This document shows positions 9,661 through 44,895 of a DNA stretch of 64,000 nucleotides, piece after piece; within the stretch, counting starts at the first letter, position 1; each line of letters opens with the position of its first letter. Under the pieces are notes generated by a model, which did no database searches, had not been told where the DNA came from, and saw nothing but the letters and a program-made list of their open reading frames with translations. The position numbers were made by a program, and so were the translations under genes. The DNA is taken from contig CAZDXF010000001.1 in the NCBI GenBank assembly GCA_964509605.1, positions 79,619-143,618 on the forward strand. The letters run 5' to 3'. The stretch comes from an uncultured Candidatus Saccharibacteria bacterium. GTDB taxonomy: Bacteria; Patescibacteriota; Minisyncoccia; Phycocordibacterales; Zambryskibacteraceae.

Positions 9661-10737
9661 ATGATTATTGCTGATATCGTAAAAGTTTTTCTTCCTGCAG
9701 TTCTGGCTTTTTGTATTGGAGTTTTAATAACTCCCATAATCACAAACTATCTCTATAAAAATGAGATGTGGAAGAAAAAAGCTGGCAAAATGACGCTCGA
9801 TGGAAAAGAAACTCCAGTCTTTAACAGTTTGCATAAAGAAAAAGAAGTAGGTACTCCTAGAATGGGCGGGCTCGTCATTTGGTCTTCTTCTGTAATTACG
9901 ATTCTTGGGATTTGGATAATCTCACTCACACTTCCATCTGACTTAAGTTCCAAACTTGATTTTCTAAGCAGGAATCAAACTTGGCTTCCTCTTTTTACTT
10001 TAATCTTGGGATCTCTAATTGGTTTACTTGATGATTATTTGGAAGTAAGCGGTGGAGGAGGACATGTTGCGGGGGGACTTTCCCTTAAAAAAAGACTTTT
10101 GGCCGTTGGAGCTATTGGTATTGTTTCTGGATTTTGGTTTTTTTCAAAACTTGATGTATCGGGAATAGGACTGCCAAACGATGGATTTATAAATTTAGGT
10201 TGGTTCTTTATTCCTTTCTTTGCGTTAGTAATGATAGCCATATATTCAGGAGGAGTGATAGACGGAATAGACGGATTGGCGGGAGGAGTTTTTGCGACAA
10301 TGTTTAGTGCATATGCAGGCATAGCTTTCTATCAACAACAAATAAATCTCGCTGCTTTTTGTCTAACGCTTGTTGGAGGAATCCTCGCTTTTCTTTGGTT
10401 CAACATTCCGCCAGCAAGGTTTTATATGTCAGAAACAGGGACAATGGGGCTAACTATAACATTGACTGTGGTGGCATTTATGACCGACTCCTTGGGTGGT
10501 GGATACGGAATTTTAGTTCTTCCAATAATTGCAATGCCTTTGGTAATAACAACCCTGTCCAACATCATCCAAGTAATTTCAAAAAAAATGAGAGCGGGTA
10601 AAAAGGTTTTCCTTGTTGCCCCAGTTCACCACCATTTTGAAGCAATTGGATGGCCCGGATACAAGGTTACAATGAGATATTGGATATTTGGTGTTGTTTT
10701 TGCAATTCTCGGAGTCATTTTGGCCATAACGGCCTAA
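9661..10737 (+). CDS. mraY: Phospho-N-acetylmuramoyl-pentapeptide transferase
   Basis: 10-TM protein with a DDxxD-like LLDDYLE motif and the PVHHHFE motif. It sits in a dcw-like order with ftsW and murG. Confidence 0.95.
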   Translation: MIIADIVKVFLPAVLAFCIGVLITPIITNYLYKNEMWKKKAGKMTLDGKETPVFNSLHKEKEVGTPRMGGLVIWSSSVITILGIWIISLTLPSDLSSKLDFLSRNQTWLPLFTLILGSLIGLLDDYLEVSGGGGHVAGGLSLKKRLLAVGAIGIVSGFWFFSKLDVSGIGLPNDGFINLGWFFIPFFALVMIAIYSGGVIDGIDGLAGGVFATMFSAYAGIAFYQQQINLAAFCLTLVGGILAFLWFNIPPARFYMSETGTMGLTITLTVVAFMTDSLGGGYGILVLPIIAMPLVITTLSNIIQVISKKMRAGKKVFLVAPVHHHFEAIGWPGYKVTMRYWIFGVVFAILGVILAITA

Positions 10738-15930: not shown

Positions 15931-16206
15931 GTTAAAAATGAAGATAGTAAAGACAACAACATTTTATCTTTTAGCTGTGGTTTATATTCCACTCTATATT
16001 TTTATGCACCTAACATACAGTTGGTGGGAAGGGCTTTTGGATTAATAAATTAATAAACCGTACACAAAGAATAGCAAGGTGGCCCCTGAAGCCAAAGCCC
16101 CTCTAGATATATAGTACCGCAAAGATATATTGTGCGACATACTTATATTCTAAGGGAGTGTGCTCCCCCACAGCAATAAGCGGTAATACCTGAACAAATA
16201 AAGTAA

Positions 16207-16240
16207 ACAAAAAACCCGGGAACTCCCGGGGTTTTTGTTT
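16207..16240. terminator. Bidirectional rho-independent terminator
   Basis: AAAAAACCCGGGAACTCCCGGGGTTTTTG, a GC hairpin flanked by A-tracts and T-tracts, lying between convergent genes. Confidence 0.6.
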
Positions 16241-16424
16241 ACTGGCATGAATCGCAAATGTTTCTTTCTGCTGGATCTTCAATTTCAGGAAAATCGTCAG
16301 ATCTCAAAGAAACCGGTTCATGACTATAATTTTCTTCTGGCATAGCTTTTATATTATCTACCAATCTTTAAATCTTAAAAATGTGGATATTGCTCTTCAA
16401 AACAATTTCCCTACCCTGTCCATA

Positions 16425-25005: not shown

Positions 25006-25031
25006 ATTTCGTTCGATATATCGAACGAAAT
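25006..25031. promoter_or_regulatory. Perfect 26-bp palindrome ATTTCGTTCGATATATCGAACGAAAT (putative operator) abutting the -35 of the downstream GC-rich gene
   Basis: An exact palindrome. A TTGACTTTTTT-N16-TATAAA promoter follows within 12 bp. Confidence 0.5.
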
Positions 25032-25999: not shown

Positions 26000-26039
26000 T
26001 ATTTATTAAAATTAATTACAAAGTTTTCCATTTCGTTCA

Positions 26040-26065
26040 ATATATCGAACGAAATGGACTTCTAA
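26040..26065. promoter_or_regulatory. Second copy of the 26-bp palindrome (one mismatch: ATTTCGTTCAATATATCGAACGAAAT)
   Basis: Same sequence as 25006..25031 except G->A at one position. It lies ~70 bp upstream of the next GC-rich ORF. Confidence 0.5.
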
Positions 26066-26394: not shown

Positions 26395-26437
26395 CCCGCA
26401 CGGTCGTAGCGCTACGACCGTGCGGTTTCTGTTTTTT
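26395..26437 (+). terminator. Rho-independent terminator (15-bp perfect palindromic stem + U-tract)
   Basis: CCGCACGGUCGUAGC/GCUACGACCGUGCGG followed by UUUCUGUUUUUU. Confidence 0.65.
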
Positions 26438-26450
26438 CTCTTCTGTCTAC

Positions 26451-26500
26451 TTATTACTGTTTACTAATTACTATCTATTAACTCCTGCCTACTATTTTAG
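26451..26500. repeat. TACTGTTTACTAATTACTATCTA...CCTACTATTTTAG motif, copy a of a 3-member repeat family
   Basis: Related copies lie at 34467..34535 and 38600..38637. Each lies just after a GC-rich terminator and overlaps or abuts the stop codon of a convergent minus-strand gene. Confidence 0.5.
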
Positions 26501-26974
26501 TCCCTTACAATTAGAAGCTGGTACATAACCAGCTTTTCTCGCCTCTTCTATTGAAGCGAAAGTTATTTTATTTTCTTCTGCAATTCTTTTTGCGCCCGAA
26601 CACCATGGATAATGATACTTATCACTATTTTTGGAACCAACAACAATTCCATTTTCCTGACTTTCAATTTCATTTTTTATAGTTTTTTGAATTTCTGAAG
26701 AATTGAGCTCGTCTAAAGATAGAACTGCGGAAGCCGAACTATTATCAAAAAACAGCACTTCCGGAGCCGTCTTCTGATCTTTATAAAAAGACAATCTTCC
26801 CAAACCAAAAGAGCCCAGAGCGACCAAAATAATCAAAACTCCTAAAAATAAGTGTTTTTTGACATCATCCCCCCTATCTTTTGGCTCCAAATCAAAAACC
26901 TCCTCTTCATAATTAGCCTTGTTTTGAGGGTCATCTAGGGGGTTGATTTTATTTGACTCTTCTTTTATACTCAT
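26492..26974 (-). CDS. Membrane-anchored protein with C-terminal Ada-N-terminal-like (sunset-like) metal-binding domain
   Basis: One TM helix and a C-terminus KYHYPWCSGAKRI...FASIEEARKAGYVPASNCKG, which resembles the Ada zinc-binding pattern (x..CRPSC...F.S..EA..AGFRPCKRC). Confidence 0.55.
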   Translation of the reverse strand: MSIKEESNKINPLDDPQNKANYEEEVFDLEPKDRGDDVKKHLFLGVLIILVALGSFGLGRLSFYKDQKTAPEVLFFDNSSASAVLSLDELNSSEIQKTIKNEIESQENGIVVGSKNSDKYHYPWCSGAKRIAEENKITFASIEEARKAGYVPASNCKGLK

Positions 26975-26976
26975 CC

Positions 26977-27110
26977 CGTTAGAAGCAGGTCGCGGTCAAG
27001 CGATCTGAGGATTGAAAATAGGTTGTTAATTATCTAATATTTATACTTCTTAATGGTCTGTTTCCTGTTATAACCACGACTGTGGCTTCTAACGGGACTC
27101 ATATCCTGTA
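26977..27110 (+). promoter_or_regulatory. Structured leader upstream of rpmA, closed by a 12-bp long-range inverted repeat
   Basis: CCCGTTAGAAGC (26977-26988) pairs with GCTTCTAACGGG (27099-27110), enclosing ~110 nt directly upstream of the L27 gene. Confidence 0.35.
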
Positions 27111-27153
27111 TTAATCAGCTTATAGGCAAAAACCTAAAGCATCAAGTAAAGCA

Positions 27154-27426
27154 ATGGCATCGAAAAAAGCAGCTGGATCAACAAAAAACGGAAGAGATTC
27201 CAATCCGAAATATCTCGGAATCAAAGTAAGCCCAGGAGCACTAGCTTCTGTTGGTTCTATTTTGGTACGACAAAGAGGAACCGATGTACTCCCTGGTAAA
27301 AATGTTGGTATGGGAAGAGACCACACCCTATTTGCTCTCAAGAATGGAAAGGTGGAAATGAGTCACAAAAGAAAGACTCACTTTGACGGCAAAATAATCA
27401 GAAAGAAAATAATAAGCGTAAACTAG
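27154..27426 (+). CDS. rpmA: 50S ribosomal protein L27
   Basis: [24 protein letters not shown]...VRQRGT...[15 protein letters not shown] is a canonical L27. Confidence 0.9.
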
Positions 27427-27429
27427 AAA

Positions 27430-27460
27430 AACCCTCCAATAAATTGGAGGGTTTTTTGAA
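27430..27460 (+). terminator. Rho-independent terminator
   Basis: AAAAACCCTCCAATAAATTGGAGGGTTTTTTG. Confidence 0.65.
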
Positions 27461-27540
27461 TTTGACTTTTTTGAATGAGATTGTTATAAAAGCTCGAGCT
27501 GTTCTGCAGGAAACCTTCTGCCCCCAAAAGGAGCTGGACT

Positions 27541-27918
27541 ATGCATCTAGCAACCGCAGGTGAAGCGAAGGCACAGTTTATGACAATCCTCATGAGTGAA
27601 GCGGTATCAACAGATGCTATCCTGTCTCTCATCGAGGATATCGAAGCCGGACAAGTGGTGGGTCGAGATTGCGAGAGATGTCCAATCGCTCTTCTCGCCT
27701 ACTACTCTGAGAAGACCTACGAGTCTTTTCGAAGGAGGTTCGGATTTTCTCCCAACTGGAGAGAGAATCCGTTTGAGGTTTTCGTACAGGGAATCTTCTC
27801 CGGACACACTCCGGCGAAAAACTCTGATCTGGCCCATGTCCTCGTGTGGTGCGACGAAGCGCTTATCATGAGGGCCGAGCGAAGTGTGCTGGAAACCTCA
27901 GAGGTCCTCGCTTCCTGA
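27541..27918 (+). CDS. Hypothetical protein (125 aa); GC-rich cassette gene
   Basis: TTGACTTTTTT-N16-TTATAA promoter at ~27466-27498. AAAGGAG Shine-Dalgarno sequence. About 55% GC. A GC hairpin terminator follows. No motif recognised. Confidence 0.5.
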   Translation: MHLATAGEAKAQFMTILMSEAVSTDAILSLIEDIEAGQVVGRDCERCPIALLAYYSEKTYESFRRRFGFSPNWRENPFEVFVQGIFSGHTPAKNSDLAHVLVWCDEALIMRAERSVLETSEVLAS

Positions 27919-27927
27919 ATCAATTCA

Positions 27928-27960
27928 AAAGGCCGTCCCGATGTACCGGGACGGCCTTTC
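27928..27960 (+). terminator. Rho-independent terminator
   Basis: AAAGGCCGTCCCGATGTACCGGGACGGCCTTTC. Confidence 0.6.
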
Positions 27961-27967
27961 AACTTTA

Positions 27968-28411
27968 TTATTTAGCTTTTACTGAGAGTTTAAATTTAAC
28001 TGAAGCGTCTTGAACACTCACTTCTATTTCGTGCTCGCCCACTTCTTTTATGGGCTTCTCCAAAATAATGTGTTCTGGCAGAATTTCTAATCTTGTCTGT
28101 CTTTCAAGCTCGACTACAATCTCTTCTTTGTGAATTCCGGCAAAAAGATGCCCCTGTTCATTTGCAGTTTCTTCCATTTCAAGCACCACACCCTCAAGTG
28201 AGTGAAGATTCTTTGAAAGCAAGTCTTCCTGAATTTTTCGATTCTCTTCCTCTTTGGTCTTCAAATCTTCCAACTTCTTAATAGCTCCACCCAAAGCCGG
28301 CTCTGCAATACCTTTAGGAATTAAAAAATTCAAAGCGTATCCGTCAGAAACTTCCTTTACATCATATTTTTTGCCAAGTTTGGCAACATTTTTAAGCAAA
28401 ATAACCTGCAT
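27968..28411 (-). CDS. rplI: 50S ribosomal protein L9
   Basis: MQVILLKNVAKLGKKYDVKEVSDGYALNFLIPKG is the canonical L9 N-domain. Confidence 0.9.
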   Translation of the reverse strand: MQVILLKNVAKLGKKYDVKEVSDGYALNFLIPKGIAEPALGGAIKKLEDLKTKEEENRKIQEDLLSKNLHSLEGVVLEMEETANEQGHLFAGIHKEEIVVELERQTRLEILPEHIILEKPIKEVGEHEIEVSVQDASVKFKLSVKAK

Positions 28412-28448
28412 AATTTTTATTGTTTAAGGCCTATCATTCTACTCATTT

Positions 28449-29681
28449 TTACCAATTGAGCAAGACTTCAATAGCTTTCTCTTTAGCTGGATCCAACCCC
28501 TTTTCAAAATCTTCCCTAGATGGTTTTACTAGAAAATCCGGCTCTACCCCATTTTCAGAAAGAGAGACACCGTCTGGAGTAAGCCATCTGGCAATAGTAA
28601 CCTTGAGAGATGTCTCTGGAGTTATTTTCACCAATTCTTGAACAGAGCCCTTACCAAAAGTTTTATCTCCGACAATTTTTGCTCTTCCGTGCTCTTTCAA
28701 AGCGCCCGCCAAAATTTCTGAAGCCGAGGCAGACCCTCCGTCAACCAAAATTACAAATCTCAAATTTTCAGAAAAAATATCGTATCCCCTACTCCTATAT
28801 ACAACCTCATCTCTCTTGCCACCAAAATCTTCCCTAACAATCACCTTGCCGGGTGGAAGAAACCAACTCGCCATATCTATCGCAGCTTCCAGATACCCTC
28901 CCGGATTTCCTCTTAGATCAAGAAGGATTTTATCAGCACCTGATTGATAAAATTCTCTAAGAGCGCTTCTAAACAAATCTGGAGAAGTGGCAGAAAAACT
29001 GTAAAGTTCAATCAAGAAAATTCCGTTTTGCAACACCTCGGTGTTTATTGTCGGTATGTCTATAATGTCTCTAACAACAGAAATATCTTCTGGATCTTTT
29101 TCTCCATTTCTAATTATTGAAAATGTTACCGAAGTCCCCCTCTTTCCTCTTATTAAAGTAACAGCTTCTTCGGTTGTCATATTGAGAGTGCTTTTCCCTT
29201 CAATACTTATTATCCTATCTCCAGGTTTAATACCTGCCCTATATGCAGGAGTCCCTTTAAGAGGAGCTATTACAGTGAGCACTCCGTCACGCAAGCCGAT
29301 TTCCATTCCCACACCTTCAAAATTTCCCCGCACATCAGCTTCAAATATTTCATTTTGAACTGGTGGTAAAAAAATAGTATAAGGATCGCCAAGAGACGCT
29401 GCCAACCCTTCAATGGCTCCCCACACTTTTTCCTGATCAGTCGCCATCTCTCCAGAGGAACCTTCTGTCGGAACATACTTTTCATTTAAAACATTCCACG
29501 CTTTCCAAAAAGGAGAAAAATCTACAGAGGAAGGTTTATTTGCTTCTTTGTTTTCTAGAGTCGTCGCTTTCTCAACTGGACTTTCCTTTATTTCTCCAAA
29601 ACGGACTCCGGCAAAAAAAACGACCAGAAGCACTAGGGCTCCTGCCAAAATTGTTGAGAGATTTTTTTGATAGCCATCCAT
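28449..29681 (-). CDS. ctpA: Carboxy-terminal processing protease (S41, CtpA/Prc) with PDZ domain
   Basis: TM/signal segment, a PDZ domain (GIKPGDRIISIEG), and an S41 catalytic region (GGSASASEILAG...K). Confidence 0.9.
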   Translation of the reverse strand: MDGYQKNLSTILAGALVLLVVFFAGVRFGEIKESPVEKATTLENKEANKPSSVDFSPFWKAWNVLNEKYVPTEGSSGEMATDQEKVWGAIEGLAASLGDPYTIFLPPVQNEIFEADVRGNFEGVGMEIGLRDGVLTVIAPLKGTPAYRAGIKPGDRIISIEGKSTLNMTTEEAVTLIRGKRGTSVTFSIIRNGEKDPEDISVVRDIIDIPTINTEVLQNGIFLIELYSFSATSPDLFRSALREFYQSGADKILLDLRGNPGGYLEAAIDMASWFLPPGKVIVREDFGGKRDEVVYRSRGYDIFSENLRFVILVDGGSASASEILAGALKEHGRAKIVGDKTFGKGSVQELVKITPETSLKVTIARWLTPDGVSLSENGVEPDFLVKPSREDFEKGLDPAKEKAIEVLLNW

Positions 29682-29812
29682 AAAAACAAAATATTACAAA
29701 AAGTATACCAGACCTCGGTCTTTTTTGCAGTTAAAATACCTCCCCTTGATAAGATTTGACCGACCAAAGTTTGCACAAGCCGAGACCTGTCGTGTGATAT
29801 AATTTCAAAAAT

Positions 29813-30730
29813 ATGATAAACAGATACCAATACAAAGACACTGTTTGGGTGGATTTAATAGAACCGACACCCGAAGAAGCAAAAGAGGTAATGGACGAAT
29901 TTGGAATCGACCCTTTTGTGGCAAATGAGCTGACTTCACCTTCGTTTAAATCTAGAGCTGAATTACGCCGTGATTTTATATACCTCATCCTCCACTTTCC
30001 GGCTTTTAAGCACAGCCACAAACAAGAAGAGCTGGCTCAAGAAATAGATTTTGTTATAGGAAAAGATTTTCTAATTACCGCTAGATACGACACTATAGAC
30101 GCAGTAGACAAATTTGCAAAGACAATAGAGGTAAACACTATTCTTGATAAAACGACGGAAAAAAATTGCACTGGCTTTATTTTCTTCGGAATAGTTCAGG
30201 AAATTTACCGATCTCTTGGAAATGAGTTGGACTACATTAGAGACTGGTTGGGGAAAATTGAAAAAGAAATTTTTGCCGGAAAAGAAAAAGAAATGGTTGT
30301 TTCCCTATCACACGCCAGCAGAACTCTTTTAAATTTCAAAAAAACTACAGACTTTCACAAAGAGGTCTTGGAATCGCTGGACGAAATCGGAAAGAAAATT
30401 TTTGACGAACATTTCTCTTATCATGTCCACCGACTTTTAGATGAATACCACAAACTTAAATATGTCATAAGAAATAGTATGGATTCTGTGATGGAGCTCC
30501 GAGAAACAAACAATTCTCTGGTATCAACAAAACAAAATGAAATTATGAAAGTTCTAACAATCCTTGCTTTCATAGGATTGCCACTTTCAATAGTCGTCTC
30601 TCTTTTACAAATTGATACCCAGACAAGACCTATCGTTGGAATAGAGAATGATTTTTGGATACTTCTTTCAGTACTTGCCGGAATAGGAATAATTATCTTC
30701 TTGTTTTTCAAATACAAAAAGTGGCTTTAA
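29813..30730 (+). CDS. CorA-family divalent cation transporter homologue with non-canonical signature
   Basis: The C-terminus KVLTILAFIGLPLSIVVSLLQID...FLFFKYKKWL aligns to the CorA TM1-loop-TM2 region, but the YGMNF motif is replaced by LLQID. Confidence 0.6.
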   Translation: MINRYQYKDTVWVDLIEPTPEEAKEVMDEFGIDPFVANELTSPSFKSRAELRRDFIYLILHFPAFKHSHKQEELAQEIDFVIGKDFLITARYDTIDAVDKFAKTIEVNTILDKTTEKNCTGFIFFGIVQEIYRSLGNELDYIRDWLGKIEKEIFAGKEKEMVVSLSHASRTLLNFKKTTDFHKEVLESLDEIGKKIFDEHFSYHVHRLLDEYHKLKYVIRNSMDSVMELRETNNSLVSTKQNEIMKVLTILAFIGLPLSIVVSLLQIDTQTRPIVGIENDFWILLSVLAGIGIIIFLFFKYKKWL

Positions 30731-30742
30731 AAGTGGAGAATT

Positions 30743-32176
30743 GTGAATAAGGAATTAGGAATAATGAAACTCGTAAATACGCTAACTGGGAAAAAAGAAA
30801 AATTTGAACCAATCCACGAAAAAGAGGTGGGGATGTACAACTGCGGTCCAACGGTCTACAACTACGCCCATATTGGCAATCTGCGCGCTTATGTTTTTGC
30901 CGACACTTTGAGAAGAGCTTTGGAATACAGCGGATTTAAGGTAAACCAAGTCATAAATATCACCGACATTGGCCACCTTTCAGGAGACGGAGATGAGGGA
31001 GAGGACAAAATGACAAAAGCTCTCAAGCGTGAAGGAAAACCTTTTACACTTGAGGCGATGCGAGAGTTGGCAAATTTTTATTTCAAAGCTTTCAAAGAAG
31101 ATTTGAATAAACTCAACATAAAAGAGCCTGACCACTTCCCTTTCGCAAGCGATCATATAAAAGAAGATGTCAGTTTAATTGAAAAGTTGACTGAAAAAGA
31201 TTTTGCTTATAAAACAAGTGATGGAATTTATTTTGATATATCAAAAGACAAAAACTACGGCAGACTTGGTCGCCAAAACTTTTCCCAAGAAAATTTAGGC
31301 GACCAATATAGCGTATCTAGAATAGGAACGAATCCAGAAAAAAGAAATCCGAGAGACTTCGCGCTTTGGAAATTTAATTCCGAGCTTGGTTTTGAAGCAC
31401 CTTTTGGAAAAGGATTTCCCGGCTGGCACATAGAGTGCTCTGCAATGTCTATGAAATACCTGGGGGAAACTTTTGATATTCATACCGGAGGGACAGACCA
31501 TATTCCTGTTCACCATAATAATGAAATAGCGCAATCAGAAAATGCTACCGGAAAAGAATTTGCTCGTTTTTGGCTCCACTCTGCATTTGTAAATATGGGC
31601 GAAGAAAAAATGGCGAAGTCCGAAGGAAATACCCTCACTTTAAAAGATCTTGAAGAAAAAGGAATCCACCCTCTTGCCTATCGCTTTTGGCTACTTCAAG
31701 CAAAATACAGCTCACCAATAAATTTTTCTTGGGAGGCGGTAAAGTCAGCACAAATAAGCTATTTAAAAATACTTAGACATTGGGGACTACTACAAATTAC
31801 AATAACACCAACAACCCTTGATGCTGATTTTGAAGGTTACCAAAAGAGGTTTAGACAGACGATTGAAGATGATCTAAACACCCCACAAGCCATAGCCTTA
31901 ATTTGGGAAATACTCGAAAACGATAATTTGAACAATTTCTACAAAAAACAACTTATTGCAGATTTTGATAAAGTCCTTGGTTTAAAAATAGAGTCTATGG
32001 AGGCATATGTTGATCTAAAAAAAATCCCTGAAGAAGTTAGAAAGATGATAGAAGAAAGAGAAAGCGCTAGAAAAGAGAAAGATTGGGAAAAATCGGACAA
32101 AATAAGAGAGGAGTTAAAATCAAAAGGTTATGAAATAGAAGATACTCCAGAAGGGGTGAGAGTTTCAAAAATCTAG
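30743..32176 (+). CDS. cysS: Cysteine--tRNA ligase
   Basis: CGPTVYNYAHIGNLR (HIGH motif), KMAKSEGN (KMSKS motif), and the zinc-binding Cys/His residues. Confidence 0.95.
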   Translation: MNKELGIMKLVNTLTGKKEKFEPIHEKEVGMYNCGPTVYNYAHIGNLRAYVFADTLRRALEYSGFKVNQVINITDIGHLSGDGDEGEDKMTKALKREGKPFTLEAMRELANFYFKAFKEDLNKLNIKEPDHFPFASDHIKEDVSLIEKLTEKDFAYKTSDGIYFDISKDKNYGRLGRQNFSQENLGDQYSVSRIGTNPEKRNPRDFALWKFNSELGFEAPFGKGFPGWHIECSAMSMKYLGETFDIHTGGTDHIPVHHNNEIAQSENATGKEFARFWLHSAFVNMGEEKMAKSEGNTLTLKDLEEKGIHPLAYRFWLLQAKYSSPINFSWEAVKSAQISYLKILRHWGLLQITITPTTLDADFEGYQKRFRQTIEDDLNTPQAIALIWEILENDNLNNFYKKQLIADFDKVLGLKIESMEAYVDLKKIPEEVRKMIEERESARKEKDWEKSDKIREELKSKGYEIEDTPEGVRVSKI

Positions 32177-32181
32177 CCCTC

Positions 32182-32241
32182 ATTTCGTTCGATATATCTA
32201 ATTACCCTTCCCCTTACTATCGATATATCGATAGTAAGGGG
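32182..32241. promoter_or_regulatory. Half-copy of the 26-bp palindrome (ATTTCGTTCGATATATC) followed by a distinct perfect 32-bp palindrome CCCCTTACTATCGATATATCGATAGTAAGGGG
   Basis: It shares the TCGATATATCGA core with the 25006 and 26040 sites. It lies between cysS and the dnaB promoter (TGTGTTAAAAT). Confidence 0.45.
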
Positions 32242-32422
32242 AAAGTACTTCTATTTCTCCATCCTTTATTCGCCATTCCTCATTCTTTATTTTTTTCCCC
32301 ATTCCTCCTAAAAGCTAACAACTAGTAGCTAAAAGCTGTCGCTCCCTCTCCCCACTCTCCCCACAACTTTTTCCCTTATAAATATTTTCCTTTTCCTGCC
32401 ACCCTTGTGTTAAAATGCTCGC

Positions 32423-33805
32423 ATGCCGGACAACCTCATCAAAGAAAAAGTTCGCATCCCCCCTCAAAACATAGAAGCCGAAATGGCTCTTTTGGGTTCA
32501 ATAATGCTTCGCCCAGAAGCGATTTATGAAGTTATAGACATAGTCAGCCCAAAATCTTTTTATGCCGAAAAGCACTCTCTCATATTCGGCACAATGCTTG
32601 AACTTTTCAACAAGAGAGAACCCATAGATCTACTATCTCTATCTTCTCGTCTAAAAGAACGAAAGCTTTTAGACCAAATAGGTGGCGCGAGCTATCTAAC
32701 AGAGCTTGTAAACACAGTACCCTCGTCTGCAAACCTAAAACACTATGCAGAAATAGTTCAGAAAAAGTTTATGATGCGCCGACTGATAGAAGTGTCTGAA
32801 CACATATCTGGTCTCGGCTTTGAAGAGGCGCACGACCTGGAAGAAATTTTAGACAAAGCAGAAAAAGCAATTTACGAAATCACTGGAGCCGGAGCCACAA
32901 GAACTTTTACAGAAATCAGAGATGAGCTTTCTGAAGCTTGGGAAAGATTGGACAAACTTCACAATGCAAAAGGAGAGCTTCGCGGAGTACCTACTGGTTT
33001 TGCAGAGCTTGATCACAAACTGGCAGGATTCCAAAAATCAGACCTCGTCATCATTGCTGCTCGCCCATCAATGGGAAAAACTTCTTTGGCTTTGGACATT
33101 GCGCGCCAGACCGCAGTAAACCACCAAGTACCTGTCGGAATATTTTCTCTTGAAATGAGTGCTCAACAACTTGTGGATAGAATGCTCGCCGCTCAATCAA
33201 ATGTGGATGCTTGGAAACTTCGCACAGGAAAACTCTCGCGCGAAGAAGATTTTGCATCAATCCGCCAATCTCTAGACAAGCTCTCTCAAGCTCCAATTTA
33301 TATAGACGACCAGCCGGCAAACAATATTATGAAAATGCGCTCTGTTGCCAGGCGCCTTAAAAGTGAGAAAAATCTTGGCCTCGTAATAGTGGACTATCTT
33401 CAGCTTATGGTCCCCACCCAATCTCGTTCAAGCGACAATATGGTCCAGCAAGTCACGGAAATATCCAGATCTCTTAAAAACCTCGCCAGAGAGCTAAATA
33501 TCCCTGTTATAGCCCTTTCCCAGCTTTCTCGTGCCGCCGCCCAGACAGGAGAAAAGCCCAAGCTCCACCATCTAAGAGACTCTGGATCCATTGAGCAGGA
33601 TGCCGATGTTGTGATGTTTATTCACAGAGAAGACAAGTTTAAAGAAGAATCTGAAAAGACAAATATTGCCGAAATTCTCATTGAAAAACACAGAAATGGA
33701 GAAACTGGTAAAATAGAACTTTATTTCAACGAAAAGAAAGCTACTTTCCAAAGTATAGAAAATTCAAAATTTGGAGGAACAGAAAAAGAGTTTGAGAATT
33801 TCTAA
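32423..33805 (+). CDS. dnaB: Replicative DNA helicase DnaB
   Basis: N-terminal primase-interaction domain, a RecA-fold with Walker A ARPSMGKTS, H1/H4 motifs, and the characteristic Arg finger. Confidence 0.95.
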   Translation: MPDNLIKEKVRIPPQNIEAEMALLGSIMLRPEAIYEVIDIVSPKSFYAEKHSLIFGTMLELFNKREPIDLLSLSSRLKERKLLDQIGGASYLTELVNTVPSSANLKHYAEIVQKKFMMRRLIEVSEHISGLGFEEAHDLEEILDKAEKAIYEITGAGATRTFTEIRDELSEAWERLDKLHNAKGELRGVPTGFAELDHKLAGFQKSDLVIIAARPSMGKTSLALDIARQTAVNHQVPVGIFSLEMSAQQLVDRMLAAQSNVDAWKLRTGKLSREEDFASIRQSLDKLSQAPIYIDDQPANNIMKMRSVARRLKSEKNLGLVIVDYLQLMVPTQSRSSDNMVQQVTEISRSLKNLARELNIPVIALSQLSRAAAQTGEKPKLHHLRDSGSIEQDADVVMFIHREDKFKEESEKTNIAEILIEKHRNGETGKIELYFNEKKATFQSIENSKFGGTEKEFENF

Positions 33806-33808
33806 AAA

Positions 33809-34423
33809 ATGAGCGCTGTTCAAAAACTTACAGAATTGTTTAAAGATTTTCCAGGGATTGGTCCGAGACAAGCCAAGCGGTTTGTATATTTTCTTCTAAC
33901 AAGAAACAAAGATTATTTAAAAGACCTCACTGACGCTATTGAAGAGCTGAAAGCTGAAACGGCTTCTTGCTCATCTTGCTTCAGATTTTTTACAAAAGAA
34001 AAAAACGGATCTTTGGTCTGCCCTATCTGCTCTTCTGCAAACAGAGACAGTGCTTCTTTAATGATTGTCTCAAGAGATGTTGATTTGGAAAATATAGAAA
34101 AGACAGATACCTACAACGGTATGTATTTTGTATTGGGAGGGACCGTGCCAATACTTGAAAAAGAACCCGAAAAAAGAATCCGTATTAGAAATCTGATTAG
34201 AAAAATAGAGGACGGTAAAAAAGATATAAAAGAAATAATTTTTGCCTTGAGTCTTAACCCTGAGGGCGAAAATACAGAAGATTATGTCAGAGAAAAAATT
34301 AAAGATGTTTGTGAAAAAAATTCAATAAAAATTTCTGTTCTTGGCAGAGGTCTCTCCACAGGACTTGAGCTTGAATACTCCGACTCCGAAACCTTAAGAA
34401 ATGCTTTGAAAAATAGAACATAA
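33809..34423 (+). CDS. recR: Recombination protein RecR
   Basis: HhH (FPGIGPRQAKR), a C4 zinc finger (CSSC...CPIC), and a Toprim domain. Confidence 0.9.
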   Translation: MSAVQKLTELFKDFPGIGPRQAKRFVYFLLTRNKDYLKDLTDAIEELKAETASCSSCFRFFTKEKNGSLVCPICSSANRDSASLMIVSRDVDLENIEKTDTYNGMYFVLGGTVPILEKEPEKRIRIRNLIRKIEDGKKDIKEIIFALSLNPEGENTEDYVREKIKDVCEKNSIKISVLGRGLSTGLELEYSDSETLRNALKNRT

Positions 34424-34425
34424 AA

Positions 34426-34470
34426 AAACACCCCGTTTCGCGATTCGCGAAACGGGGTGTTTTTTTCTAC
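34426..34470 (+). terminator. Rho-independent terminator
   Basis: AAAAAACACCCCGTTTCGCGATTCGCGAAACGGGGTGTTTTTTT. Confidence 0.7.
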
Positions 34471-34535
34471 TGTCTACTAACTACTTCCCACTATTTACTG
34501 TCTACTGTTTACTAACTACTGTCTACTATTTTATT
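34467..34535. repeat. TACTGTCTACTAACTAC...TGTCTACTATTTTA motif, copy b (tandemly reiterated)
   Basis: Contains several iterations of TACTGTCTACT / TTTACTAACTACT. It abuts the rplU stop codon. Confidence 0.5.
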
Positions 34536-34935
34536 TTATTCCCACAATTTCTACTTCAAAATATGGTTGTCTGTGTCCGTATTTTTTAAAGTATCTGCTC
34601 TTCTGTTTGTATTTTATTGTCGTCACTTTTGCATTCCTTCCAATTTTCACCAAAGTCCCCTCTATCTTTGAACCACCTATAACCGGAGTGCCGATTGTGG
34701 TTGTTCCTTTTCCATCATCAAAAAGCAACACTTCATCAAAAACAATTTTGTCTCCAGCTTTATAATCCCCCTTTATTTTTTCAACTTTAATTTTATCTCC
34801 ACTGGAAACCTTGTACTGCTTTCCGCCTGTTGCAAAGACTGCAAACCACCCCTCTTTTGGCAGAGAAGTTTTACTCTTTGCTGGAGCTTTTTTCGCCTTT
34901 TTTTCGGTCTTTTTTACTTGAGTTTCTTTAGACAT
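34531..34935 (-). CDS. rplU: 50S ribosomal protein L21
   Basis: The C-terminal 100 aa match L21 (FAVFATGGKQYKVSSGDKIKVEKI...). A Lys/Ala-rich N-terminal extension begins at MSKETQ. The longer track ORF 34531..35076 is an in-frame read-through of the structured leader. Confidence 0.85.
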   Translation of the reverse strand: MSKETQVKKTEKKAKKAPAKSKTSLPKEGWFAVFATGGKQYKVSSGDKIKVEKIKGDYKAGDKIVFDEVLLFDDGKGTTTIGTPVIGGSKIEGTLVKIGRNAKVTTIKYKQKSRYFKKYGHRQPYFEVEIVGIK

Positions 34936-35267
34936 AACGGGCTCTATTCTATATAAAATCAGGAAAATGGCAAGGCCCTCGAATCGCTCGAGGGCCCGTG
35001 CACCACCCCTTGCTGGGAGTGACCTAAAACTTAAGATTTCACCAACAAGGAGAGACAGTTGGTCACCCCCTCTCAAAGGTTGAGGTTTTGACCTCTAGCC
35101 GATGAGAGAGAGCTTACGGACGACTGTAGCCCATGGTGCATCTCCAAAGCTGGGGTAGGAGGAGAACTGCGGAAGGGTGTTGCGGTTGTCTAAACCTTTT
35201 TCGGAATAAGACCCCCTTTGGTTCAGTCTTTCTTTATTATAACCCCGACTTCACTTAAAACTGGGGA
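34936..35267 (-). promoter_or_regulatory. ~330-nt GC-rich, highly structured 5' leader of rplU (possible ribosomal-protein autoregulatory leader or embedded ncRNA)
   Basis: TATAAT at ~35225. Multiple nested helices, e.g. GGGGGUGACC/GGUCACUCCC, GAGGUCAAAACCUC, and GGCCCUCGAGCGAUUCGAGGGCC. No plausible ORF other than the artefactual rplU N-extension. Confidence 0.4.
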
Positions 35268-36353
35268 TTATTGATCATCAGCGATATCAGGCTTTTCAAG
35301 TACGAGAGATTCCACTCCTACAGCTGTGCCCGTAATTCTTAAAACATCTTTATCTATTTTCCCTAGCTCTTTCCTAGAAGAATTAAAATGATTTACCACA
35401 GTACCAAGAGATGTGCCGAGTTTATCGTGATATTCTTCGTAACTTTTTATATGCTTCCCTAGTTCACTCACGCGCTTTATAATATCTTGCGCCGTTTCCT
35501 CTATTTGCAGGGCCTTTAGACCCTGAAGTACTGTTTGGAGATACGCCAAAAAAGAAGTTGGAGAAACGATAATTACCCTCTTTTCTTTAAATGCATATTC
35601 AATCAGATCTCTTGTATTGACCTTCACTGCACCCACTTGAGATATTAGCAAGTCATAATATATTGCCTCATGAGGAATGAACATAAAAGCAAAGTCCATA
35701 GTCCCCTCCATCGGTTTAACATATTTTGAAGTCTCATCTATCCGGTTTTTTAGGTCCGTTCTAAAAGCTTTTTCCAAGCGCTCTTTTTCTGCGGAGTCTT
35801 TTTCTTCCACCAGACGGTTATAGTTTTCAAGAGAAAACTTAGAATCAACTGGTATTATTTTATCTTTTACAAAAACTACCGCATCAACAATCGTTCCATC
35901 AGAAAAAGGATACTGCATTTGGAAACTCTTTGGCGGTAAAACATTTTTAAGGAGAGTTTCCAAATAATATTCTCCCAGTATCCCTCTTTGCTTTGGATTC
36001 TTTAAAATATCCTGGAGAGATTGCAGTTGGTCGGCAAAAGACACCACCTGCTTATTTGTTTCATCGAGTCGTGTAAGACGCTCTGTAATATCGCGAATAA
36101 TTTTTACAGATTCGCTAGACTGGTGTCGCATCGTTTCGTGTAGCTCTCTGGCATTTTCTGCCATCTTTGAATCAAGTGTTTTTGTAAGATCATTTAAATT
36201 GCGAGCCATTTCATTAAACTGATTTTGGATAAGCATAAGCCCTCCTTCCGGTTCACTTTCTTTTTTGCGACCTGAAAAAATGCGCCACAAAAAAACCGTG
36301 TTCAACACGAGAATAACCAAAAGAAAAACAAAAAAATAAGCGCTGTTTATCAT
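35268..36353 (-). CDS. rmuC: DNA recombination protein RmuC
   Basis: N-terminal TM segment, a long coiled coil, and a C-terminal RmuC nuclease-like domain (VDAVVFVKDKIIPVDSKF...FAFMFIPHEAIYYDLL). Confidence 0.8.
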   Translation of the reverse strand: MINSAYFFVFLLVILVLNTVFLWRIFSGRKKESEPEGGLMLIQNQFNEMARNLNDLTKTLDSKMAENARELHETMRHQSSESVKIIRDITERLTRLDETNKQVVSFADQLQSLQDILKNPKQRGILGEYYLETLLKNVLPPKSFQMQYPFSDGTIVDAVVFVKDKIIPVDSKFSLENYNRLVEEKDSAEKERLEKAFRTDLKNRIDETSKYVKPMEGTMDFAFMFIPHEAIYYDLLISQVGAVKVNTRDLIEYAFKEKRVIIVSPTSFLAYLQTVLQGLKALQIEETAQDIIKRVSELGKHIKSYEEYHDKLGTSLGTVVNHFNSSRKELGKIDKDVLRITGTAVGVESLVLEKPDIADDQ

Positions 36354-36421
36354 CTTTTTATTATACCAAGAACATCCTGACAGCTAGTGGCTAAAAGCTA
36401 AAAGCTGTATAATGTCTCATT

Positions 36422-36868
36422 ATGTTGCATAAAGAGATACAAAAAGAAATCGCCGAGGCAATGAAGGCCAAAAACACCGTAAAGCTTAATACCGTTAGAG
36501 GGCTGTTGTCCTCATTTACAAATGAGCTTGTCGCAAAAGGCAGAAAACCCACAGAAGAGCTCACGGACGAGGAAGTGCTTGAGGTAATAAGACGATCTGT
36601 AAAACAAAGAAAAGATTCTATAGAGCAGTTTAAAAAAGGAGGAAGAAATGATTTGGCAGAAAGCGAGGAAGCAGAGCTAAAAATTTTGGAAGTATATCTA
36701 CCACAGATGATGAGTCAAGATGAAATCCGGCCAATCGTTGAATCAAAAATAAAAGAGCTTGGAGCTGACAAAAGCAAGATTGGTCAACTTATAGGAGCGA
36801 TAATGAAAGAACTAAAAGGAAAAGCGGACGGGGCTGATGTCAAAGCGGTAGTGGAATCTATTTTATAA
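36422..36868 (+). CDS. GatB/YqeY domain protein
   Basis: IAEAMKAKNTVKLNTVRGLLS...EVYLP is the typical YqeY signature. TGTATAAT extended -10 upstream. Confidence 0.8.
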   Translation: MLHKEIQKEIAEAMKAKNTVKLNTVRGLLSSFTNELVAKGRKPTEELTDEEVLEVIRRSVKQRKDSIEQFKKGGRNDLAESEEAELKILEVYLPQMMSQDEIRPIVESKIKELGADKSKIGQLIGAIMKELKGKADGADVKAVVESIL

Positions 36869-36934
36869 AAATTTCCACTTGATTTTCGTTAGATGAGTAT
36901 ATACTAGAATACAGAACCCTTTCATGGAGGAATT

Positions 36935-37423
36935 GTGCTGACACTTTCCGCATGTTCCTTTGACATCCAAGTGAGCTCGATGAGTTTGAGTAGGGTCATA
37001 ACCGCTGGAGATTACGATGTCCTGCACCCTCACATCGGGAAAATAGACCTTTCTGTCTGTGACGTGCCCCTCAGTACCAAGGACAGTGGTGTCCGCGTCA
37101 TAAGCTTTGCAACGGTGCGATCCTTAAACGGCAAAGCCGAAGAAGCATACAGGTGTTTCAAAAAGTTCAAAAAGAAACGATTGGCATTGCTTCGCGAATT
37201 TCTTCACATCGGAGTTTGCAAGCCGGAAATTCAAAGGTTCTATCAGATCTTTTGTCTTACGGCGATGTTTCCAGTAAGAAGGTTGAATGGCAAGTGGACC
37301 TCAGTCGTCCTGTTTCTTGATACGGACAAACTCGGAAGAAGGTGTATCGGTCTGCACGATATAGAGAACCCTCTGCCAATGAGTGCTGTGGTTGCCTATG
37401 TGCAATACCCAGAAGTAAGCTGA
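36935..37423 (+). CDS. Hypothetical protein (162 aa); GC-rich cassette gene (GTG start)
   Basis: GGAGG Shine-Dalgarno sequence 4 nt before the GTG. About 50% GC. Own TTGATT...TATACT promoter and a terminator at 37445-37490. No motif recognised. Confidence 0.5.
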   Translation: MLTLSACSFDIQVSSMSLSRVITAGDYDVLHPHIGKIDLSVCDVPLSTKDSGVRVISFATVRSLNGKAEEAYRCFKKFKKKRLALLREFLHIGVCKPEIQRFYQIFCLTAMFPVRRLNGKWTSVVLFLDTDKLGRRCIGLHDIENPLPMSAVVAYVQYPEVS

Positions 37424-37444
37424 CCATCACCAGCGTATCCAGAC

Positions 37445-37490
37445 AGCCCTGGCCCGTTTTAAACGGACCAGGGCTTGCTCTTTTTCATTA
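37445..37490 (+). terminator. Rho-independent terminator
   Basis: CAGCCCUGGCCCGUUUUAAACGGACCAGGGCUUGCUCUUUUUC. Confidence 0.6.
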
Positions 37491-37579
37491 TCCACAGTTT
37501 CTTGACTTTTTCTTTAAAATATGATAGTATTAAGATCGGAAAGCTCCACTACACTCTAACCGAGGGAAGGAGGGGGGGT

Positions 37580-37849
37580 ATGATTCCCCAGGTTTCGTTC
37601 CAAGACCTCGTAAAAGAGGTCAAGGAGCGCCACATTTCGACCGGTGCTCCTCTCACCCTGCTGGTGGGAGAGGCACTCGCAAGATGTGGTACTGCTGATC
37701 CAGAAGCGAAGTGCAAGCTTCTGTCGGCGGTCGTAGGCGAAGTCCCCTCTTGGAAGCAGGTTCGGAGGGGACTCGTGGAAGAACGGCGGGGCCGTAGTGG
37801 CGTGGTATATCGCGCCGAAAACGGCTTCCAGCCAGAGCGGGACGACTAG
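37580..37849 (+). CDS. Hypothetical protein (~90 aa); GC-rich cassette gene
   Basis: Canonical TTGACTTTTT-N17-TAGTAT promoter at ~37501-37535. GGAGGGGGGG Shine-Dalgarno sequence. A hairpin terminator overlaps the stop (GGGACGACUAGUACAGUCGUCCC + U-tract). Coordinates are ±1 nt. Confidence 0.45.
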   Translation: MIPQVSFQDLVKEVKERHISTGAPLTLLVGEALARCGTADPEAKCKLLSAVVGEVPSWKQVRRGLVEERRGRSGVVYRAENGFQPERDD

Positions 37850-37971
37850 TACAGTCGTCCCGTATTTTTTATTTTAAAAATTAAAAAGCGCGCCGTTGAC
37901 TAACTAAATATTTTATACTATTGTTTGCGCTAGCAGTTCCTAAACAAACAAAAACTACTTTGGAGGTATAT

Positions 37972-38544
37972 ATGTCCACCGAAGGACAGACCAACGACTC
38001 AGCCAACGAGCTGATTCGAAGTTTTCCGAAGGACAGAAGGCTCTTTTTGGGCGACACGGTGGATGCAAAAGAGTCTCGCAGACTCATTTCAAGCATCGTA
38101 TCGCTCTCTGCAACTGAAGACCCAATTCTTCTTACCATCAATTCTGGTGGAGGAGGTTTTTGGGAAGGACACTATCTCTATGATGCAATCAGGGTGTGTC
38201 CAGTATCTGTCACAGGTCTTGTGATTGGTACGGCCTCGTCTGTGGCTTGCGTTATCCTGCAGGCCTGCAATCGAAGATTGATCACCAAACACTCCAGAAT
38301 TCTGGTTCACCCTCCGTCTTTCAGAGGAGATGTGGAGTTTGACATTCACTCTGACAACGAGAGGACTCTCCGAGAAATGCGACACTGGTACAAGGAATTC
38401 AGGCGCAATGTGAGGAGAACTGAAGAACTCCTTCTCAATCATTGCAACCTGAACAGGAACCAGCTTCGCAGTCTTATGGAAAAGGAACTGTATCTCGAGT
38501 CTGACGAAGCGCTAAAAATGGGCTTCGTGGATGAAGTGGTTTAG
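37972..38544 (+). CDS. ClpP-family serine peptidase (S14), stand-alone; GC-rich cassette gene
   Basis: RLFLGDTVD...LTINSGGG...YDAI...GTASSVACVIL (Ser)...SRILVHPP (His)...ESDEALKMGFVDEV (Asp) aligns to the ClpP catalytic triad. GGAGG Shine-Dalgarno sequence, TTGACT promoter, and a GC hairpin terminator. About 50% GC. Confidence 0.8.
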   Translation: MSTEGQTNDSANELIRSFPKDRRLFLGDTVDAKESRRLISSIVSLSATEDPILLTINSGGGGFWEGHYLYDAIRVCPVSVTGLVIGTASSVACVILQACNRRLITKHSRILVHPPSFRGDVEFDIHSDNERTLREMRHWYKEFRRNVRRTEELLLNHCNLNRNQLRSLMEKELYLESDEALKMGFVDEVV

Positions 38545-38550
38545 GTTTGG

Positions 38551-38590
38551 AAAGTGCCCGCGACGCCTTGGCGTCGCGGGCCTTTCTCTT
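38551..38590 (+). terminator. Rho-independent terminator
   Basis: AAAGTGCCCGCGACGCCTTGGCGTCGCGGGCCTTTCTCTTTTTC. Confidence 0.65.
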
Positions 38591-38599
38591 TTTCTTATT

Positions 38600-38637
38600 T
38601 TCTGTCCACTGTCTACTAACTATTGTCTACTATCTTA
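38600..38637. repeat. TCTGTCCACTGTCTACTAACTATTGTCTACTATCTTAA motif, copy c
   Basis: Matches copies a and b. It overlaps the stop codon of the convergent Ogt-like gene. Confidence 0.5.
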
Positions 38638-39370: not shown

Positions 39371-39416
39371 GTTTTTATCACCAACCCGTGTCGACCTGGC
39401 AGGTCGACACGCTTTT

Positions 39417-40357: not shown

Positions 40358-40429
40358 TGACCCTACCGGGAATCGAACCCGGCTTTGGAGCTTGAGAAGC
40401 TCCCGTCCTAACCGATAGACGATAGGGCC
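40358..40429 (-). tRNA. tRNA-Glu (anticodon CUC)
   Basis: Manual cloverleaf. Acceptor GGCCCUA/UAGGGUC, D-arm GUCU/GGAC with a GG loop, anticodon stem GGAGC/GCUCC with loop UUCUCAA, T-arm CCGGG-UUCGAUU-CCCGG, discriminator A. No encoded CCA. Confidence 0.85.
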
Positions 40430-40527
40430 GTTAAACAGAAGTTAAGAATAAAGAAATAAGAATGAAGAATCAAGAAGTGCTAAAAATCTTTCACCATTCG
40501 CCTTTCGATATTCATTATTCTCCCGCT

Positions 40528-44862: not shown

Positions 44863-44895
44863 GCTAGTTACTAGATACTGATCACTAGCTACTAG

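Follow-up and report, generated by a model that had tools for sequence, protein, structure and literature searches.

Stop-adjacent heptanucleotide tandem arrays in a Patescibacteria genome and their possible role in 3' untranslated regions

Results

Arrays at the ends of convergent genes

The window, by which we mean the whole stretch of 64,000 nucleotides (nt) that was analyzed (positions 79,619 to 143,618 of contig CAZDXF010000001.1, assembly GCA_964509605.1, from an uncultured Candidatus Saccharibacteria bacterium), contains short arrays of a 7-nt unit where genes of opposite strands converge, and these arrays are the subject of the present analysis. Three plus-strand genes there are followed by hairpins: a gene of 82 amino acids (aa) by a terminator at 26396..26425 (plus strand; 13 pairs, 9 of them GC, then a T-rich tract), recR by a bidirectional terminator at 34423..34466 that serves rplU on the minus strand as well (A7, a 20-pair stem and T7; -36 kcal/mol, z = -6), and clpP by a terminator at 38556..38581 (plus strand; 11 pairs, 10 of them GC, then a T/C-rich tract). 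Facing them on the minus strand are a 160-aa gene (26492-26974), rplU and an 83-aa Ogt-like gene. Pfam confirms RecR, L21, ClpP and the MGMT DNA-binding domain, which bears out the rplU and Ogt-like identities proposed in an earlier note on this DNA; for the 160-aa gene the sole Pfam match, Ada_Zn_binding, falls below threshold. The earlier note had placed one copy of a three-copy dispersed repeat family in each of these gaps, 3' of a GC-rich hairpin on the plus strand, and both the copies and the hairpins are where it described them; each hairpin has a T-tract.

The recurring sequence is real, and it is better named a set of heptanucleotide tandem arrays. The three copies are arrays of an imperfect tandem heptamer that reads YYACTNW on the plus strand and WYAGTAR on the minus strand; the 7-nt units run head to tail in at least three contiguous copies, which makes them heptanucleotide tandem repeats, and a 14-nt super-period overlies the 7-nt unit. 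Array a (26440..26495, minus strand) has eight units, on the plus strand CTTCTGT CTACTTA TTACTGT TTACTAA TTACTAT CTATTAA CTCCTGC CTACTAT (TRF period 14 x 3.7, score 55). Array b (34467..34529, minus strand) has nine, CTACTGT CTACTAA CTACTTC CCACTAT TTACTGT CTACTGT TTACTAA CTACTGT CTACTAT (TRF period 7 x 8.9, 69% matches), and array c (38599..38633, minus strand) has five, TTTCTGT CCACTGT CTACTAA CTATTGT CTACTAT, with a degenerate sixth unit at 38592. Set in register, arrays b and c are identical at 37 of 42 positions. To these three a fourth is added, array d (44863..44895, minus strand), whose four units occupy the entire 33-nt gap from the mraZ stop to the rsmH start, reading on the minus strand TAA CTAGTAG CTAGTGA TCAGTAT CTAGTAA CTAGC ATG; it has neither a hairpin nor the CTGTCTACT core (TRF period 7 x 4.6).

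The finding is real and statistically solid. With up to two mismatches, the 13-mer CTACTGTCTACTA occurs nine times in the window, always on the plus strand and always inside arrays a-c, against 0.56 expected (maximum 3) in shuffled sequence. A four-unit profile scan of the window returned arrays a-c and 44868-44895 only, with zero matches on the minus strand, and across the 64 kb the unit is found at four intergenic sites and nowhere in coding sequence. The unit profile, W-Y-A-G-T-A-R, summarizes the minus-strand reading of 44 units, which come from seven arrays of three genomes (A3 in 44/44 units, G4 in 42/44, T5 in 39/44, A6 in 36/44 and R7 in 42/44).

Each of arrays a-c spans the gap that separates the T-tract of the plus-strand terminator from the convergent gene's stop codon. 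In array a the last unit contains the TAG stop of the 160-aa gene (26492..26494, minus strand), and in array c it contains that of the Ogt-like gene (38630..38632, minus strand), each followed by a second TAG in frame; the earlier note was exact in reading CTA as the stop of the convergent gene in these two copies. It was equally exact for array b, where the TAA stop of rplU (34531..34533, minus strand; TTA on the plus strand) is 1 nt past the last unit and 5 nt away from the corresponding CTA. In gene sense, all four arrays of the window, and likewise their orthologues, begin 0-5 nt from the stop codon; array onset is at the stop codon, with TAG or TAA as the first repeat triplet. For annotation, the arrays account for several window genes ending in TAG. 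The open reading frame (ORF) listed for rplU (34531-35076, TTG start, 181 aa) probably begins too far upstream; its L21 domain begins at residue 78, and the calls in relatives are 134-140 aa long.

In the sense of the minus-strand genes the arrays are purine rich and C poor, and arrays a-c read as 5-9 WYAGUAR units ending in ...UWAGUAG-ACAGNNN before the A-tract and hairpin of the terminator. As RNA they are unstructured in both senses (minimum free energy, -0.1 to -2.1 kcal/mol; z, -0.1 to +1.8), less structured, or at least no more stable, than shuffled sequence, and they sit beside a hairpin of -36 kcal/mol. No sigma-70-like site scored inside them, and a promoter reading was rejected on that ground; Rfam at gathering thresholds found a tRNA as the sole match in the whole window.

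Conservation and resizing among relatives

The window, which comes from a Paceibacteria-like Patescibacterium, was analyzed together with 83 related loci, 80 of them from one metagenome scan, and the Paceibacteria-like DNA covered in this way amounts to 783 kb; RecR homologues are labeled Candidatus Zambryskibacteria, Paceibacterota and Patescibacteria group, among others. The loci of the nearest relatives, L122, L124 and L126, have gene order in common with the window and RecR identities to it of 77%, 74% and 67%. Neutral divergence, measured at fourfold degenerate sites of dnaB, recR, rmuC and clpP, is essentially saturated, with identities of 0.44, 0.43 and 0.40, respectively. Across this distance the arrays vary in size and presence. 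At the 3' end of rplU, where the window has nine units, L122 has five, L124 four to five and L126 none, although L126 carries the 14-mer CCACTGTCTACTAA directly after recR, on the recR side of the recR/rplU junction. At the 3' end of the Ogt-like gene the window has five units and L122 about seven, and other heptamers stand in L124 (TTTCTAT, ATAAGCT) and L126 (ATAAGCT). Hairpin sequences at the array sites differ among most genomes; the outer stem of the 26396..26425 hairpin is kept in L126, but the array downstream of it is not.

What is kept is the sequence at the two ends of the arrays, a terminator-proximal motif, CTGTCTACTWA, and a stop-proximal motif, YYACTATYTTA (minus strand TAAAATAGTAG), both of which are retained at the rplU site in two of the three relatives and at the Ogt site in one. 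The core CTGTCTACT occurs 13 times in the 783 kb, every time within the clade of the window, and 12 of the 13 occurrences are intergenic, ten in arrays and two in 2-unit copies. Because the seven-position consensus and both end motifs persist at saturated divergence, we take the sequence to be under constraint; over such a distance the consensus of a neutral array should drift, even if slippage homogenizes it. Within the clade, selection appears to maintain both the unit and the two end motifs. As copy number differs between genomes, slippage-type resizing also operates; duplicate contigs from other samples are 100% identical and hence uninformative on copy number within the species.

Slippage alone could be the whole explanation, the arrays being neutral microsatellites that arise and resize through polymerase error and are tolerated between terminator and stop codon. 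Period 7 indeed dominates the tandem repeats of at least three copies in the lineage (66, against 12 of period 8 and 9 of period 6), in each of the four close genomes the autocorrelation of intergenic DNA has peaks at lags 7 and 14, and the heptamer units are many and unrelated (GAATAAG, AAAAGCT, AATTTTC, TTTCTAT, AGTAAAA and others). The differences in copy number between orthologous sites fit as well, and heptamers, by the account of Mrazek 2007 given in PMC4679880 and PMC4692102, are the most over-represented long simple repeats in many bacteria, an excess there ascribed to slippage. Such an origin is harder to reconcile with a unit, core positions and end motifs that persist where fourfold sites are saturated and hairpins differ, or with the presence of the same unit at three to four separate loci. 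The arrays are also imperfect, with 69-78% matches, and are therefore not recent expansions. We consider a purely neutral origin unlikely, and the orientation of the arrays, to which we now turn, is a further point against it.

Orientation relative to stop codons

An array was called stop-adjacent or start-adjacent when it lay at most 15 nt from the codon in question. In the 783 kb, the purine fraction in gene sense is 0.50 or higher for all 16 stop-adjacent heptamer arrays and 0.58 or higher for 14 of them, a level that 27% of ordinary 3' flanks reach. At 4147-4235 of locus L131, two convergent genes each have a sense-oriented GAATRRG array, the pair flanking one bidirectional terminator, so that orientation there tracks the gene and not the DNA strand.

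For a broader view, the pattern TACTDWY x3 + TACT was scanned across phyla with one genome per species, yielding at least 120 loci; the counts that follow hold among the matches listed, which include cyanobacteria, Acidobacteriota, Bacteroidota, Chloroflexota, Nitrospirota, Saccharibacteria and others. Stop-adjacent arrays of the TACT type carry AGTAR in gene sense in 32 cases and in reverse in 1, whereas start-adjacent arrays upstream of genes carry it in sense in 2 cases and in reverse in 15. Of the 32 ORFs in the stop-adjacent class with AGTAR in sense, 31 have a length of 150 aa or more, and 22 belong to loci with a GC content under 50%. A filter for stop safety, whereby arrays touch gene ends only in the orientation that supplies a stop, was rejected as the sole cause because units whose two senses both contain stops still have a polarity of 11:0. 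Loci that combine the two orientations place the purine-rich array first, then a core and then the pyrimidine-rich array, without exception (10/10). The motif is neither scattered irrespective of context, as the earlier note had allowed for a simple low-complexity repeat, nor absent elsewhere. The start-codon class matches the published orientation of TAACTGA repeats, with 147 sets toward start codons and 12 toward stop codons (PMC4679880).

Two features of the window do not carry over as general rules. Arrays do not always follow GC hairpins, as a perfect GC stem within 80 nt, on one side or the other, accompanies only about 8% of the cross-phylum matches listed, and the notion that DNA downstream of terminators is pyrimidine rich corresponds to a weak effect in the lineage. 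In metagenome-assembled genomes of Pyrinomonadaceae (L014, L018, L048, L052, L056, L080 and L041), inverted ACAGTAG/CTACTGT arrays surround a core of ~60 nt with conserved ends (GAAAANCCTTCG ... GCGGAGCGC). This element is present in many copies per genome, its arrays often begin at a stop codon, and it looks composite, either MITE-like or terminator-like.

These data also bear on the possibility that the arrays serve the plus-strand genes, as tracts of C/U-rich, G-poor read-through RNA that would act as a Rho loading site or a weak-hybrid zone and halt antisense transcription into the convergent gene. In the plus sense the arrays contain 25-29% C and 5-9% G (25% C and 5% G in array a) and are unstructured, a composition that fits a Rho utilization (rut) site, though for read-through RNA only. 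They always come after the T-tract of a plus-strand terminator, even at L124 2332, where both neighbors are plus-strand genes, and other pyrimidine-rich heptamers occupy the same places in relatives. Lineage segments after terminators, on the other hand, are only mildly pyrimidine rich (purine fraction, 0.43-0.48; C-G skew, 0.11-0.21), and a compositional signal needs no sequence-specific conservation of AGT. The same polarity appears in co-directional contexts that have no opposing terminator and in cyanobacteria, which to our knowledge lack Rho, and no Rho P-loop motif was found in the 783 kb of lineage loci, which are partial genomes. We hold a role as a post-terminator tract to be very unlikely.

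Gene content at array junctions

The earlier note had also proposed the arrays as cassette boundaries or target sequences and suggested looking for GC-rich cassettes by comparison with relatives. The hairpins give no support to this, being unrelated in sequence to one another beside arrays a-c and ordinary terminators rather than cassette copies. Gene content does differ at one array junction, recR/rplU. In L124 (10616-11738) and L126 (10613-11767), recR and rplU are separated by a cassette of two genes that has a TTGACA promoter and a terminator of its own. Its proteins (183/185 aa and 105 aa) have no Pfam matches, and neither the window nor L122 contains it. This supports the proposal weakly.

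More generally, the arrays could be recombination or insertion sites, or relics of a mobile element, that mark the gain and loss of small gene cassettes or hairpins. In L124 the array remains on the rplU side of the cassette, beside the rplU stop and behind a different terminator, and in L126 CCACTGTCTACTAA is on the recR side. L122 has an extra, inserted hairpin that separates the array from the clpP terminator; it belongs to a family, GTCRACCTGGCAGGTYGAC, which is dispersed intergenically (window 39390-39408; L122 9406, 10514, 11015 and 11482; L131 3140; L139 5682) and may be REP-like. The inverted arms of the Pyrinomonadaceae element, built of the ACAGTAG/CTACTGT unit around a homologous core, likewise look MITE-like. 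Yet there is no integrase or transposase nearby, the arrays persist where gene content is unchanged, and the hairpins, as noted, are unrelated. A phage or mobile origin was rejected, since a scan of viral contigs for ACTGTCTACTAAYTA gave 54 single chance matches and zero arrays. That the arrays exist as recombination sites or relics seems to us highly improbable.

Other heptamers and repeats of the lineage

Heptamers also stand upstream of genes. An (AAAAGCT)n family lies directly upstream of the TGTATAAT extended -10 box, which precedes the start codon of yqeY by 8 nt, in the window (36385-36421), L122 (6962-6994) and L124 (13529-13562), kept despite saturated neutral divergence in a layout that looks leaderless. 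Its position in these three genomes would suit an operator in double-stranded DNA, on which a protein polymerizes along direct heptads, either insulating convergent units from each other or forming a roadblock between them, or else acting upstream of promoters. Consistent with this, 2-unit modules occur between co-directional plus-strand genes, one of them directly upstream of a TTGACA -35 box, and conservation of sequence is what a specific binder would leave. An operator, however, offers no reason for strict orientation relative to the adjacent gene, the unit is unlike known heptad operators, and no candidate binder is found among the neighboring genes. We rate this explanation as quite unlikely.

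Upstream of dnaB (window 32250-32340), pyrimidine-rich ATTCNNN-type heptamers are followed by CTAAAAG CTAACAA CTAGTAG CTAAAAG, and similar arrays precede dnaB in L124 (8483-8513) and L128 (4618-4677). Beside the minus-strand tRNA gene at 40358-40429 of the window is an (AAGAATA)n array (40442-40478). Arrays of the related unit GAATRRG are found on the flanks of terminators in L131 and in L122, where an inverted pair (1497-1566) sits between corA and cysS. In L182, L188, L196 and L199, at ~10368-10405, a heptamer-periodic GAATAAGGAATAAGGAATTAGGAATAAGGATTAAGGAA is inside recR, with protein length unaltered.

Two further features of the window may be recorded. A perfect 22-bp palindrome, TTCGTTCGATATATCGAACGAA, occurs twice in promoter-like regions 1 kb apart (25008-25029 and 26032-26053; 0 expected), with a partial copy near 32183, and is a candidate operator. 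A 494-nt gene-free region (15931-16424), where gene orientation and GC skew switch, holds a bidirectional terminator-like hairpin, AAAAAACCCGGGAACTCCCGGGGTTTTTG. The idea of a replication terminus or of terminus-polar sequence was set aside, as no terminus can be inferred when GC skew in the window tracks gene orientation.

Discussion

Bacterial tandem repeats of heptamers have been on record since 1990, and one of the families, STRR3, has the unit CAACAGT, which the rotated unit of our arrays, AGACAGT, resembles. The arrays belong to this known class (STRR, LSSR, TAACTGA); their anchoring at stop codons and the apparent selection on them are added here. With STRR and LSSR repeats they share tandem 7-nt units, several intergenic loci per genome and a copy number that varies between relatives, from which they differ in being short (5-9 units), imperfect, Patescibacterial, stop anchored in gene sense and kept across saturated divergence. 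The class has been described in cyanobacteria, Beggiatoaceae, Bacteroidetes and Xanthomonas (PMC4679880, PMC4692102). Within it, the TAACTGA repeats have been proposed as sites for RNA-binding proteins that act on translation (MacGregor 2015, PMC4679880), GGGAATC and GGGGATT repeats have been studied as G-quadruplexes (PMC4692102), and heptamers near recF and recO of Nostoc modulate expression via an unidentified partner (bioRxiv 10.1101/2022.06.06.494920). The TAACTGA sets come close to our arrays, comprising 2-6 intergenic heptamers with an ACTG core that are strongly gene oriented, stop containing and predicted to be unstructured (PMC4679880). The unit YYACTNW, however, matches TAACTGA at 4 of 7 positions in the best register, with only the ACTG core in common, and TAACTGA repeats run forward and end a few nucleotides upstream of start codons, whereas arrays a-c abut stop codons in the reverse sense. 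Stop-anchored arrays are not described in PMC4679880, PMC4692102 or bioRxiv 10.1101/2022.06.06.494920. A literature text search for the unit string returned nothing relevant.

Among regulatory systems, HutP and TRAP offer a parallel. Both are ring oligomers that read periodic triplets on unstructured RNA near a terminator hairpin, HutP recognizing UAG-N4 with a 7-nt period, and both bind in 5' leaders, where they control antitermination. Our arrays have U-A-R at positions 5-7 every 7 nt, but their invariant positions are A3, G4 and U5, that is, AGU and not UAG, and they are in the 3' untranslated region (UTR) rather than the 5' leader. No homologue of HutP or TRAP came to light, though no search aimed at one was made. 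Heptads are also read in DNA, as in the WATCACW operators of omega from pSM19035, and the ctxAB promoter has TTTTGAT heptads associated with ToxT/H-NS (bioRxiv 10.1101/2021.05.14.444153). These too are contiguous 7-bp direct repeats, variable in number and present at several sites per replicon; in contrast to arrays a-c at gene 3' ends, they are located in promoters, are unrelated in sequence and have no fixed gene orientation. REP and BIME elements occupy 3' intergenic spacers, often between convergent genes and next to, or acting as, terminators, and consist of palindromic hairpin units. Our arrays differ from these and from MITEs as unstructured direct repeats whose adjacent hairpins are unrelated in sequence, and from integron attC sites in having no palindrome and no integrase nearby, the gene-content differences at one junction being suggestive only. 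Of the roles the earlier note had put forward, that of iteron-like binding sites is conceivable, but nothing iteron specific is present: iterons are ~17-22 bp and lie beside a rep gene or origin, whereas the units here are 7 nt, their neighbors are recR, rplU, clpP and ogt, and neither a rep gene nor origin features are present.

The role that fares best of the three, although it is not proven, is that of an RNA-level element on the 3' UTRs of the minus-strand genes, for which stop-codon onset, lack of structure, the sense rule of the lineage and the stop-adjacent polarity across phyla all speak. More specifically, and tentatively, we favor a 3' UTR element under selection. It would be an RNA platform, purine rich, unstructured and periodic at 7 nt, that extends from stop codon to terminator, is probably read unit by unit by an oligomeric factor and is resized by slippage. 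It is the anatomy, conservation, polarity and absence of structure described above that suggest such an element. The array would be transcribed and lie as a single-stranded platform between the terminating ribosome and the terminator hairpin. There an oligomeric RNA-binding factor, if one exists, could read one unit per subunit, with the logic of HutP on UAG-N4 repeats or of TRAP, and its binding would set mRNA 3'-end stability or termination, while replication slippage would add and remove units.

Several observations weigh against this reading. No binding protein was identified, and Pfam searches of nearby small ORFs and of the inserted cassette genes gave no DNA- or RNA-binding candidates. 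Two 2-unit CTGTCTACTAA copies lie between co-directional plus-strand genes (L124 2332 and L126 10669), where there is no minus-sense 3' UTR and where one of them abuts a TTGACA promoter. In the minus direction the hairpins beside arrays a and c are without a U-tract, and minus-strand transcripts may therefore not end at them. Since all window copies are on one DNA strand, gene sense, the plus-strand terminator upstream and replication direction are confounded there, and since start-adjacent arrays have the opposite sense, one RNA function cannot cover all arrays. The cross-phylum set, moreover, was picked by the TACT pattern itself, and ORF calls in it are crude.

A bolder form of the same reading, which we regard as doubtful, is that stop-anchored (NNAGUAR)n arrays make up a widespread, undescribed class of polar 3' UTR elements that would be read by the terminating ribosome or by a ring-shaped RNA-binding protein. 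The class would span Patescibacteria, Acidobacteriota, Cyanobacteria, Bacteroidota and other phyla and would be the 3' counterpart of the start-proximal TAACTGA-type arrays.

For annotation, the arrays also flag junctions of differing gene content among relatives. To the heptamer repeats already described, this locus adds arrays in reduced Patescibacteria genomes, where noncoding DNA is scarce, arrays that appear to be under sequence selection rather than neutral microsatellites, and a strict orientation relative to stop codons that holds in distant phyla too. This orientation rule points to an RNA-level or translation-coupled role. If the bolder reading, a widespread class of polar 3' UTR elements, is true, the function of heptamer repeats, a question decades old, would gain a testable, sequence-specific, posttranscriptional answer.

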